UHGV virus genome: UHGV-2113044
Direction: 5' to 3' (one strand)
DNA length: 31,114 nucleotides
Source: a virus
The notes under the pieces were generated by a model that was not told the origin of the DNA, did no database searches, and worked only from the letters and a program-made list of their open reading frames with translations. This document shows positions 4,031 through 9,837 of the stretch, in pieces (within the stretch, counting starts at the first letter, position 1; each line of letters begins with the position of its first letter). Both the position numbers and the translations under genes were made by a program.

Positions 4031-4185
4031 ACAGCTCCCCGTTTATTATTTATCTCCTCAGCCAGCCGCTGTGCTTTCAGGGGATTTCGGATAACAGAAA
4101 GGCCGGGAAATACCCAGCCTCGCTTTGTAACGGAGTAGACGAAAGTGATCGCGCCTACCCGGATATTATCGTGAGGATGCTTCAT
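4003..4185 (-). CDS. Lambda orf60a-like protein
   Basis: ORF track 62 aa; start at the third codon gives 60 aa with an ATGA overlap on the exo stop. Confidence 0.45.
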
Positions 4186-6369: not shown

Positions 6370-6738
6370 TCAGGCGGCCTTGATAGTCATATCATCTGAA
6401 TCAAATATTCCTGATGTATCGATATCGGTAATTCTTATTCCTTCGCTACCATCCATTGGAGGCCATCCTTCCTGACCATTTCCATCATTCCAGTCGAACT
6501 CACACACAACACCATATGCATTTAAGTCGCTTGAAATTGCTATAAGCAGAGCATGTTGCGCCAGCATGATTAATACAGCATTTAATACAGAGCCGTGTTT
6601 ATTGAGTCGGTATTCAGAGTCTGACCAGAAATTATTAATCTGGTGAAGTTTTTCCTCTGTCATTACGTCATGGTCGATTTCAATTTCTATTGATGCTTTC
6701 CAGTCGTAATCAATGATGTATTTTTTGATGTTTGACAT
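6370..6738 (-). CDS. ea10: Ea10 early protein
   Basis: 122-aa ORF matching lambda Ea10. Confidence 0.85.
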   Translation of the reverse strand: MSNIKKYIIDYDWKASIEIEIDHDVMTEEKLHQINNFWSDSEYRLNKHGSVLNAVLIMLAQHALLIAISSDLNAYGVVCEFDWNDGNGQEGWPPMDGSEGIRITDIDTSGIFDSDDMTIKAA

Positions 6739-6846
6739 CTATTCATATCCTCATAGATAAAAAATCGCCTTCACACTGGAGGGCAAAGAAGATTTCCAAT
6801 AATCAGAACAAGTCGACTCCTGTTTAGTTACGAGCGACATTGCTCC

Positions 6847-6874
6847 GTGTATTCACTCGTTGGAATGAATACAC
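6847..6874. repeat. Perfect 9-bp inverted repeat GTGTATTCA-N10-TGAATACAC in the intergenic region between ea10 and the cargo gene
   Basis: Read directly from the sequence; no adjacent U-tract on the pL-transcript strand, so it looks more like a dimeric protein-binding site or RNA processing hairpin than a terminator. Confidence 0.5.
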
Positions 6875-6926
6875 AGTGCAGTGTTTATTCTGTTGTTTGC
6901 GTGAAAATGAAAGCCGCCTGAGCGGG

Positions 6927-7808
6927 TTATGACCACTTTTTGTTTGGATTTCGTTGGTGAGCGTGGTTTACAGGATTATTTGATATACCCCATAACTCTG
7001 ACTCGCTTATCTCTACACGAGAGAAAGACCTGCTTTCTTTCAGTTCTTTTATAAACCTAGAACCTACGATGACATCTATTGTCCCAGAAAGTTCTTGTAA
7101 AAGATCTTTGTTTTTTCTGAGGAAGAAAACATCTTCTTTATATTTAATTTTTACATAGAATTTATTCTGTATTTTTAATATATCAAAGCATGGCAGATAT
7201 CTATATCCCTCATGCTTTCGCCACTGCTTAACAATTATAACATCTCTTTCATTTACTGCATTAATCAGCCCAAGACCAAGTATAGGTATGAATATTCTAT
7301 TGTCTGCCGAAAGCGTACAATTATCACCACCAGGCAAATATGTATAAATCATGTCGGAATTTTTATACGCATCAACGAATGCACGTAAGAATCGTACATA
7401 TTTTTGCCATCCGTTTATACCAAATTTACCATATAAGTATTCTTTATTTGTTAGAAGAAAACTATTTGTATCAGGAGCCTTATCTACAGACCTGTCGATA
7501 AGATCTCCAACTACGTTTATAAAGTCAAAGACAGAGTTTAATAAGAACAATTGTCTTTCAGTCGGGCGAATTTCAATTATGTAGCCTGGATGAAGACGAT
7601 ATTGCATCTGCTTACGAAGTATACTGAACGCTTGGGTCCGGGCATCTGAAAGCAACTTCCTGTCGCCATCGCCGTGAGCATTGTTTCTAATAAAACTGAT
7701 ATAATTTGCTAATTTTTCAGCCTCTTTTTTGTGTTTTTTTCGCTCTGATGCTGAGTCTATTGGTTTTGGTATGGACTTGTAATCAATTTTCTTCATTACG
7801 TACCTCAT
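6927..7808 (-). CDS. Unknown 289-293-aa protein at the ral/sieB position immediately downstream of N; candidate superinfection-exclusion or anti-phage defence gene
   Basis: Long ORF whose first ATG overlaps the N stop (ATGA); a second ATG at 7796 has a GAGG Shine-Dalgarno 6 nt upstream. The coding DNA is visibly AT-rich compared with the flanking lambda genes. No lambda homolog recalled and no catalytic motif recognised. Confidence 0.7.
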   Translation of the reverse strand: MRYVMKKIDYKSIPKPIDSASERKKHKKEAEKLANYISFIRNNAHGDGDRKLLSDARTQAFSILRKQMQYRLHPGYIIEIRPTERQLFLLNSVFDFINVVGDLIDRSVDKAPDTNSFLLTNKEYLYGKFGINGWQKYVRFLRAFVDAYKNSDMIYTYLPGGDNCTLSADNRIFIPILGLGLINAVNERDVIIVKQWRKHEGYRYLPCFDILKIQNKFYVKIKYKEDVFFLRKNKDLLQELSGTIDVIVGSRFIKELKESRSFSRVEISESELWGISNNPVNHAHQRNPNKKWS

Positions 7809-8128
7809 GCCAATGGAATGGATTTCCCTTTAACCTTTTGTCTTCCTTGACAAGTTATACCGAACTCACTTGGCTTGCTATACCAAAATCGATGATTCTT
7901 GCGCTCAATACGTTGCAGGTTGCTTTCAATCTGTTCGTGGTATTCAGCCAGCACCGTAAGGTCTATCGGATTCAGTGCGCTTTCTACTCGTGATTTCGGT
8001 TTGCGATTCAGCGAGAGAATAGGGCGGTTAACTGGTTTTGCGCTTACCCCAACCAACAGGGGATTTGCTGCTTTCCATTGAGCCTGTTTCTCTGCGCGAC
8101 GTTCGCGGCGGCGTGTTTGTGCATCCAT
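7805..8128 (-). CDS. N: N antiterminator
   Basis: 107-aa frame MDAQTRRRERRAEKQAQWKAANPLLVGVSAKPVNRPILSLNRKPKSRVESALNPIDLTVLAEYH... matches lambda N with a few substitutions; the ORF-track N-terminal extension is not used. Confidence 0.9.
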   Translation of the reverse strand: MDAQTRRRERRAEKQAQWKAANPLLVGVSAKPVNRPILSLNRKPKSRVESALNPIDLTVLAEYHEQIESNLQRIERKNHRFWYSKPSEFGITCQGRQKVKGKSIPLA

Positions 8129-8286: not shown

Positions 8287-8317
8287 GCCCTTCTTCAGGG
8301 CTTAATTTTTAAGAGCA
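8287..8317 (-). promoter_or_regulatory. nutL: nutL (boxB hairpin GCCCTGAAGAAGGGC plus adjacent boxA-like GCTCTTAA, read on the minus strand)
   Basis: Reverse complement of 8287..8301 is the lambda nutL boxB; boxA-like sequence directly upstream. Confidence 0.8.

Positions 8318-8481: not shown

Positions 8482-9837
<1,356 letters not shown>

Follow-up and report, generated by a model that had tools for sequence, protein, structure and literature searches.

The window analysed here, the whole 31,114 nucleotides (nt) of UHGV virus genome UHGV-2113044, holds a 434-type lambdoid prophage region, and this report concerns one of its genes, an open reading frame (ORF) on the minus strand (6927..7808) which stands directly after N. 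The genes on this strand follow the order cI with hex (8482..9515), oL/pL, the nutL boxB, N, the ORF, ea10, cIII, kil, gam and bet, and the region shares 97.4% identity with Escherichia phage 434 (OL657226). An earlier note, made from the letters alone, had placed an ORF of 289-293 amino acids (aa) between N and ea10, in the position of lambda sieB and ral, with a start that overlaps the N stop as ATGA and a second ATG following GAGG, and all of this was borne out. The same note took the gene to be an unknown one, with no catalytic motif and an open function, and in this it was mistaken: the gene is CPT_434_48 (UMO75312.1) of phage 434, labelled in GenBank as a ‘Nun C-terminal peptide-containing protein’, and the Nun tail that had been overlooked gives a concrete mechanism. 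HK022 Nun is the classical superinfection-exclusion factor, of which residues 96-109 insert in the active-site cleft of elongation complexes of E. coli RNA polymerase (RNAP) and block translocation. We propose, with a probability of about 0.58 and on the strength of sequence comparison and a predicted structure, that the product of the ORF is a modular factor for the arrest of transcription elongation, a large and targeted Nun-type protein probably used in phage competition or exclusion. The features at the locus are as follows.

6927..7796, minus strand: coding sequence of 289 aa (293 aa from the upstream ATG at 7808), the same gene as CPT_434_48 of phage 434, under purifying selection.
6930..6971, minus strand: codons of the tail, V276-S289 (VNHAHQRNPNKKWS), whose residues are the same as those of the RNAP-arrest peptide of HK022 Nun (96-109).
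6860..6972, minus strand: 113-nt block, 96% identical to HK022, comprising the tail codons, stop, hairpin and downstream DNA.
6898..6926, minus strand: weak terminator-like hairpin (CCGC-UCAG-GCGG) and U-rich tract directly 3' of the stop, the counterpart of the first pL terminator after HK022 nun.
7805..8128, minus strand: lambda-type N, 107 aa, whose stop overlaps the upstream ATG of the ORF as ATGA, a pairing kept across N variants.
8287..8301, minus strand: nutL boxB (GCCCTGAAGAAGGGC), 5' of N, which puts the ORF in the immediate-early pL unit.
6370..6738, minus strand: ea10, downstream of the ORF.

The last 14 residues of the protein match HK022 Nun 96-109 (PDB 6ALG chain N) at 14/14 positions, and in a BLASTP comparison with Nun the tail aligns whereas the remainder of the protein does not. 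In the cryo-electron microscopy complex of Nun the only ordered residues are 87-109 (Kang et al., 2017, PMC5386594); contacts are made by N97, H98, H100, R102, K106, K107 and W108 together with the C-terminal carboxylate, and an N103A mutant serves as a neutral control (PMC5386594). All seven of these contact residues are invariant in seven diverged homologues of the ORF protein, which are 38-68% identical overall; the tail residues V, N, H, A, H, R, K, K and W do not change among them, and variation is limited to the positions of Nun Q101, N103, P104, N105 and S109. At the codon level the tail differs from that of HK022 by four synonymous and no non-synonymous changes, and from those of the deep homologues by 6-8 synonymous and 3-4 non-synonymous changes over 14-15 codons, giving a non-synonymous divergence (pN) of 0.09-0.13, the lowest of all segments (whole protein 0.20-0.44). 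The ten or so residues immediately upstream vary freely and are disordered in the structural model. By these counts, the tail is the most constrained segment of the protein. As the 113-nt HK022-like block begins with a mosaic junction exactly at codon V276, tail and terminator are, to judge from the DNA, a module that was recently exchanged as one, and since diverged homologues bear the tail with diverged DNA, the tail itself is old in the family. In HK022 (L002 2855 | 3913), an IS903 element is inserted in the conserved DNA 3' of the nun terminator, and homology with the window continues beyond it.

The substitution pattern of the whole ORF (dN/dS of 0.25 against phage 434, and synonymous sites saturated against the deep homologues at a synonymous divergence (pS) of ~0.8-0.9) identifies it as a real gene. 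The second ATG, at 7796, is preceded by GAGG and a 6-nt spacer, and because the phage 434 record annotates CPT_434_48 from this codon, with a ribosome-binding site, and all homologues start at the same position (MKKI/MRKI/MRE), it is the most likely start, giving a product of 289 aa. Lying behind pL and directly after N, the gene is in this phage a lytic gene of the immediate-early pL unit.

A degenerate DNA pattern built from the invariant tail residues was run on IMG/VR and returned 108 tail-bearing ORFs, 64 with HK022-Nun-like bodies, 25 with the 289-aa body and 19 others. Fourteen of these others are small, at 79-103 aa, and nearly all of them begin with an arginine-rich segment of another kind, such as NSRNRRREARKAERAEKE, NSKARRYIRRGEYLARKAL and KNSRARCKARRKQRRMAIAIEK (L048, L058, L063, L079, L115, L116 and L119, among others); they may be forms of Nun directed to other nut sites. 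The rest are five truncated pieces, of which four have 17-18 aa and one is a cut copy of 92 aa. One viral contig (L107 3257..3591, minus strand) contains two tail genes ~300 nt apart, one of which encodes 79 aa without an obvious arginine-rich motif. Almost every tail gene checked is directly followed by a GC hairpin and a T run, L037/L072 being the exception, so that the tail gene is the last before the first pL terminator, as is nun. The only large folded body found with the tail was that of the 289-aa family. Across this set of sequences, then, the tail is portable.

Characterization of the body depended on distant relatives. Word-index searches found three clusters only, whilst 18 proteins came from an exhaustive HMMER search over 1.84 billion representatives; from an alignment of 3 sequences AlphaFold gave a predicted local distance difference test (pLDDT) score of 39, which was unusable, and a usable model was obtained after the distant relatives had been added (21 sequences). 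This model has a mean pLDDT of 80 (86-96 over residues 10-225) and a predicted template modelling score of 0.71, with disorder from residue 258 on. Its elements run in the order helical hairpin (16-65), strand (71-77), three helices (80-145), a beta-barrel with one helix (152-219), two helices (221-257), then linker and tail, and the protein upstream of the tail can be divided as follows.

7593..7796, minus strand: N-terminal basic helical hairpin, residues 1-68, containing RKKHKKEAEKLANY and confined to the Nun-tailed phage subfamily.
7137..7592, minus strand: core domain, residues 69-220, predicted as beta1, a three-helix insert and a beta-barrel with one helix, resembling WED+REC (the REC lobe) of TnpB/Cas12.
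7026..7136, minus strand: C-terminal helices, residues 221-257, with a conserved KESxS(F/Y)(S/A)RV(E/D) common to the distant relatives.
6972..7025, minus strand: linker of ~18 residues, 258-275, disordered, acidic (isoelectric point, pI, 4.3) and poorly conserved, with pLDDT <50.

The protein as a whole is basic (pI 9.6). In TnpB the REC lobe is built from a WED beta-barrel which is interrupted, following beta1, by the helical REC domain (PMC10097598), and the predicted order of strands and helices agrees with this published map. With Foldseek, the top ten matches in the PDB all belonged to the Cas12 family (best E 5e-3, probability 0.96), and those in BFVD were giant-virus TnpB/Fanzor-type ‘transposases’ and a Cas12f1-like TNB protein. 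The second-best BFVD match, A0A386K639 of Dickeya phage vB_DsoM_JA11 (362 aa; probability 0.98, TM 0.30), may on this structural comparison be another TnpB-like phage protein. Sequence profiles gave much less. An HMMER profile against PDB sequences returned noise only (YadA, E 0.28), and a phmmer match to D-Ala-D-Ala ligase (E 0.05) was judged spurious. With hhalign, a single InsQ sequence gave no usable match (E 0.4) and the InsQ-family profile, under default local settings, a weak one (E 0.055-0.066), the best local match setting IFLPKLGW...GKWYISI against IPILGLGL...NKFYVKI; in the greedy alignment 158 columns run colinearly and the motifs P-x3-Q, LP-x-LG and GK(W/F)Y fall into register, at an E of 0.029 which, for one planned comparison, is marginal. 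Only ~70 residues, forming two helices and the disordered tail, follow the WED-like barrel, so that there is neither a RuvC nor a TNB lobe, and a Pfam search of the protein gave no match to PF12323, PF01385 or PF07282. We regard it as quite probable, mainly on the basis of the model, that the core of the body has the REC-lobe (WED+REC) type of fold found in TnpB/Cas12. The protein is not a TnpB, having no nuclease lobe, guide locus or significant sequence homology.

Full-length homologues with a Nun-type tail are P0004, P0005, P0006, P0021 and P0026. In a survey of what adjoins the gene in its relatives, it directly follows N in 24/26 IMG/VR loci as well as in L003 and L005, the two either overlapping as ATGA or standing a few nt apart, and this adjacency is seen with three variants of N and in no fewer than four immunity types. 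Two loci, L006 and L035, have HK022-type immunity (cro-cI-pL ~76% identical) and no N gene, and carry a 42%-identical homologue in the nun slot behind a 71-nt leader block, 94% identical to HK022, at the place of putL; putL lies just downstream of pL (PMC9378689). Going by this arrangement, the homologue is an allelic replacement of nun in HK022-type phages. In L005 the 49%-identical homologue is followed by 547 nt without a called gene (8873..9420) and then by two HNH_3 genes. Decayed forms were also seen: P0007 joins Bet residues 1-23 to ORF residues 217-289 in one chimeric protein, which implies a deletion in an E. coli prophage, L036 (4001..5202) has residues 109-248 replaced by ~750 nt, and L032 has a frameshift near residue 20 (about 4057..4072).

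The distant relatives, of 213-333 aa, match the core (approximately residues 72-228) and the Y(S/A)RV(D/E) motif; they are without the N-terminal 70 residues and end in another basic tail, ...G(R/K)PV(S/Q)GGLPSLGK(R/H)R. Three of them (P0020, P0023 and P0025), from metagenomic BREX contigs, are 57-77% identical to one another and thus represent one lineage, whilst the GTDB representative genomes gave one match, a variant in Crenobacter intestini.

L008 376..1368, L010 692..1672 and L011 1213..2205: distant core relatives of ~330 aa ending ...EGWGVNGGLPSLGKHR, between BrxC and PglX.
NZ_STGJ01000028, L038 8974..9633: Crenobacter intestini relative of 219 aa with tail IEGRPVSGGLPSLGKR, third gene of a co-directional cluster.

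The Crenobacter cluster has two further proteins (403 and 263 aa) and lies beside the S and M genes of a type I restriction-modification (R-M) system, on an element that bears RepB-primase, ParA and resolvase genes. The suggestion in the earlier note that the gene serves exclusion or defence is partly supported, by the arrest peptide, by the homologue in the nun slot and by relatives with BREX and R-M neighbours, but the association with defence loci amounts to four loci in total, three of them from the one BREX lineage, which are not enough independent cases to speak of enrichment, and the PADLOC check which that note named found no matching model.

Composition and the boundaries of homology fit with what had been claimed for the locus. 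The ORF is more AT-rich than its flanks, with a GC fraction of 0.349 against 0.478 for N and 0.388 for ea10 (entire window 0.492), and the horizontal acquisition suggested on that ground is supported by sharp mosaic boundaries: DNA homology with lambda breaks off at 7872, still within the 3' end of N, and picks up again at 6898 (99% identity), the corresponding gap in lambda containing sieB, orf28 and ral. The junction in N lies within the gene and not at its end, and the last ~22 residues (HRFWYSKPSEFGITCQGRQKVKGKSIPLA; 7805..7872, minus strand) are unlike those of lambda N. The 3' hairpin and U-tract were found as described but are weak, with a 4-bp stem (6925..6914) followed by CUUUCAUUUU at 6913..6904; owing to a G>C change the hairpin after the ORF stop falls under the threshold of a terminator consensus scan, the most frequent form at other loci being CCCGC-TCAG-GCGGG. 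A strong hairpin (14-bp stem, z-score -4.3; 6841..6880, minus strand) lies between the ORF and ea10, where the 434 record annotates a terminator; it was ruled out as an ORF-specific element, being common to lambda and HK022. A promoter-like site at 7813..7786 was rejected as transcription would begin downstream of both ATGs. Further upstream, the ORF that overlaps the 3' end of cI (8482..8958, minus strand) is hex (‘heterologous exclusion’), a gene of the phage 434 PRM-cI-hex operon known for excluding P22 in Salmonella and for shielding repressor from RecA-stimulated cleavage (PMC3564112), and no intrinsic terminator was predicted between hex and N on the minus strand.

For the mechanism of arrest, we propose that the folded body would act as a tether in place of the arginine-rich boxB-binding peptide of Nun, binding a nucleic-acid feature near the transcribing polymerase, either a short duplex-DNA motif or a structured RNA, and that this tethering would raise the local concentration of the tail such that that polymerase is arrested. 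Its role would be to block the transcription of a competing phage or of other foreign or host templates. Such a tether and tail logic has support in the literature: in vitro, Nun can act without nut, whose only part is to tether it, Nun in excess is toxic and brings any elongation complex to arrest, the dissociation constant (Kd) of Nun for a non-specific complex is ~300 nM as against ~100 nM Nun in lysogens, and tail entry seems to require a paused complex with an open clamp (PMC4496710, PMC5386594). As the WED/REC cleft of TnpB reads the duplex of the transposon-associated motif (TAM) (PMC10097598), a short duplex-DNA motif would be the most natural ligand, although a structured RNA is, in our assessment, equally possible. 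The Nun tail enters the elongation complex beside the upstream duplex (PMC5386594), and for this reason a body sitting on re-annealed upstream DNA would be well placed for tail entry. The phage's own N-modified complexes (put-modified in HK022-type phages) may escape by resisting pausing, but this is speculation.

A number of points weigh against the proposal of a targeted Nun-type factor. Nun H93 and R94, which contact upstream duplex DNA and matter for binding (PMC5386594), are replaced by N N in the ORF protein. The gene lies behind the repressed pL, so exclusion in lysogens needs read-through or another promoter, and a lambda boxB target is unlikely because the same phage uses a lambda-type N and nutL itself. 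A search of PADLOC-DB 2.0 returned no family for the protein at E up to 1, and no conserved flanking non-coding DNA was found, the gaps in L006 and the BREX loci being 33-46 nt or replaced by overlaps.

Comparison with known systems places the protein near several of them but within none. It shares with HK022 Nun the identical 14-residue arrest peptide at the extreme C-terminus, the terminator DNA that follows, a place in the first pL transcription unit and the tether and tail logic, and in HK022-type phages its homologue sits in the nun slot itself. It differs in size and structure (289 aa with a folded body of ~255 residues, as against 109 largely disordered aa), in having no detectable arginine-rich boxB motif, in the absence of H93 and R94, and in its position, as 434-type phages have it as the second gene, alongside a lambda-type N and nutL, whilst nun is first after pL and replaces N. 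Thus, of four testable features of Nun membership it has the tail and is without the other three, which are the arginine-rich motif, H93/R94, and small size with occupation of the N slot. The likeness to the RNA-guided nucleases TnpB, Cas12f and Cas12n (IS200/IS605 OrfB; for example PDB 8H1J, 8IAZ, 9UDI) is in the predicted WED barrel, split by a helical REC insert after beta1, and in colinear landmark motifs within a lobe of ~155 residues as against ~176. Unlike these, the ORF protein has neither a RuvC D-E-D domain nor a TNB zinc finger, has no recognisable omegaRNA locus, is encoded in a lambdoid pL operon and not in a transposon, adds N-terminal helices and a C-terminal effector peptide, and resembles them in sequence profile marginally at best. 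If the fold assignment is right, there is also a parallel with TldR, in which a TnpB-type recognition scaffold is reused to block transcription; TldR has retained RuvC in inactive form together with a guide RNA and forms promoter roadblocks, whereas the ORF protein is without the entire nuclease lobe and would act via a polymerase-inserting peptide. Lambda SieB and Ral are, like the ORF, products of accessory genes of the pL operon between N and ea10 with roles in phage competition or restriction, but there is no relation in sequence or structure, and sieB is on the opposite strand. The small Nun variants from IMG/VR have the same conserved tail in the same terminator-proximal place, on proteins of 79-103 aa which are mostly of the arginine-rich type in contrast to the large folded body described here.

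Other explanations have to be set beside this one. The tail could be a passenger, its 3' module a recombination linker, with function residing in the body alone, for example as a DNA-binding regulator or an anti-restriction or anti-defence protein that replaces ral. The 96%-identical HK022 block, whose start coincides with that of the tail and which extends past the terminator into conserved DNA, is a typical mosaic junction of the kind this would leave, the gene occupies the ral/sieB slot, H93 and R94 are absent, and the distant relatives work with a quite different tail; yet the tail protein has been kept whilst the DNA of the homologues became saturated with synonymous changes, its pN is the lowest of any segment, its invariant positions are those that matter in Nun and the residues just upstream vary freely, and we consider a passenger quite improbable. 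It is also unlikely, in our view, that the protein is an abortive-infection or host shut-off toxin whose body senses a cue or simply accumulates until the tail arrests host RNAP genome-wide. The non-specific arrest and toxicity of excess Nun, with its Kd of ~300 nM (PMC4496710, PMC5386594), would allow for this, as would the relatives in BREX operons and a defence island and the fact that no target element was identified. A phage that relies on host RNAP throughout would, however, defeat itself by global arrest unless its own antiterminated complexes were immune; moreover, a large conserved folded body argues for specific recognition, and neither a sensor or effector partner nor a PADLOC match was found.

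Strict adjacency and translational coupling to N, over three N variants and at least four immunity types, and membership of the immediate-early unit ahead of the first terminator could instead point to a regulator of the phage's own early transcription, acting with or against N at nut-modified complexes, for example on the extent or timing of pL/pR read-through or on the lysis-lysogeny decision. Read directly, the basic helix RKKHKK-E-AEKLANY even resembles the arginine-rich motif of lambda N, RRRERR-AEKQAQW. However, the basic and aromatic residues of this helix (residues 17-28) are not conserved among homologues, and a Nun-like arginine-rich motif in the N-terminus was rejected on that ground; neither BLASTP nor the Nun PHROG profile shows similarity to such a motif, the gene is also present without an N gene in HK022-type phages, and nun is dispensable for HK022 growth and lysogeny (PMC4496710). 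We doubt this explanation accordingly. If the REC-lobe-like body held a guide RNA that pairs with the target, arrest would be programmable, and it is true that in TnpB/Cas12 this lobe touches the guide-target duplex as well as a portion of the omegaRNA (PMC10097598). The omegaRNA scaffold of TnpB is held by WED together with RuvC (PMC10097598), which is absent here, the gene adjoins no conserved non-coding DNA from which a dedicated guide RNA could come, for which reason such a guide was judged unlikely, and Rfam found no relevant family in HK022 (L002), L003 or L006; an RNA-guided factor is thus highly improbable. Returning to the arrest factor with a recognition body and a Nun tail, one may extend it to the distant relatives: a stand-alone WED+REC lobe derived from TnpB, reading a DNA motif or holding a guide or structured RNA, could deliver at least two interchangeable effector peptides, the Nun tail in one branch and GGLPSLGK(R/H)R in the other. 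We offer this tentatively and think it rather unlikely.

With regard to distribution, the gene was found in 94/5426 complete E. coli genomes (~2%), where in all matches listed it is a ‘hypothetical protein’ adjoining N, and the 90% cluster of the protein has 1042 member sequences. In PHROGs the protein falls in a family of unknown function, phrog_12139, whilst the last 20 residues match the end (positions 93-112) of the profile of the Nun-like transcription termination factor, phrog_5632. Pfam and NCBIfam gave no match for the 289-aa protein, Pfam gave noise only for ten relatives, and no PADLOC model matched the distant relatives of the body either. A literature search on the Nun C-terminal peptide, on phage 434 with Nun, on TnpB with Nun and HK022, and on newer homologues of Nun turned up no account of the protein. 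GenBank already has the gene with its Nun-like tail. What appears to be undescribed so far is the fold of the body, the way in which selection acts on the tail, the portability of that tail, the homologue in place of nun, and the relatives in BREX loci and a defence island.

Nun is a long-standing model of a peptide that freezes RNA polymerase and was, to our knowledge, known previously only as a small, boxB-tethered protein with lambda as its single biological target. Its peptide is now seen under strong selection on a large folded body in a classical phage, 434, which together with its occurrence on other proteins suggests that it is a polymerase-arrest module of general use, which can be carried by different proteins and takes its specificity from interchangeable tethers. 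If the body derives from the recognition lobe of TnpB/Cas12, this would represent a route of domestication in which the recognition half only was kept and combined with a different effector, and the relatives embedded in BREX loci would hint at an unstudied accessory function. Should the extension to those relatives be true, the GGLPSLGK(R/H)R tail would be a second effector peptide, linking BREX accessory genes to transcription arrest.

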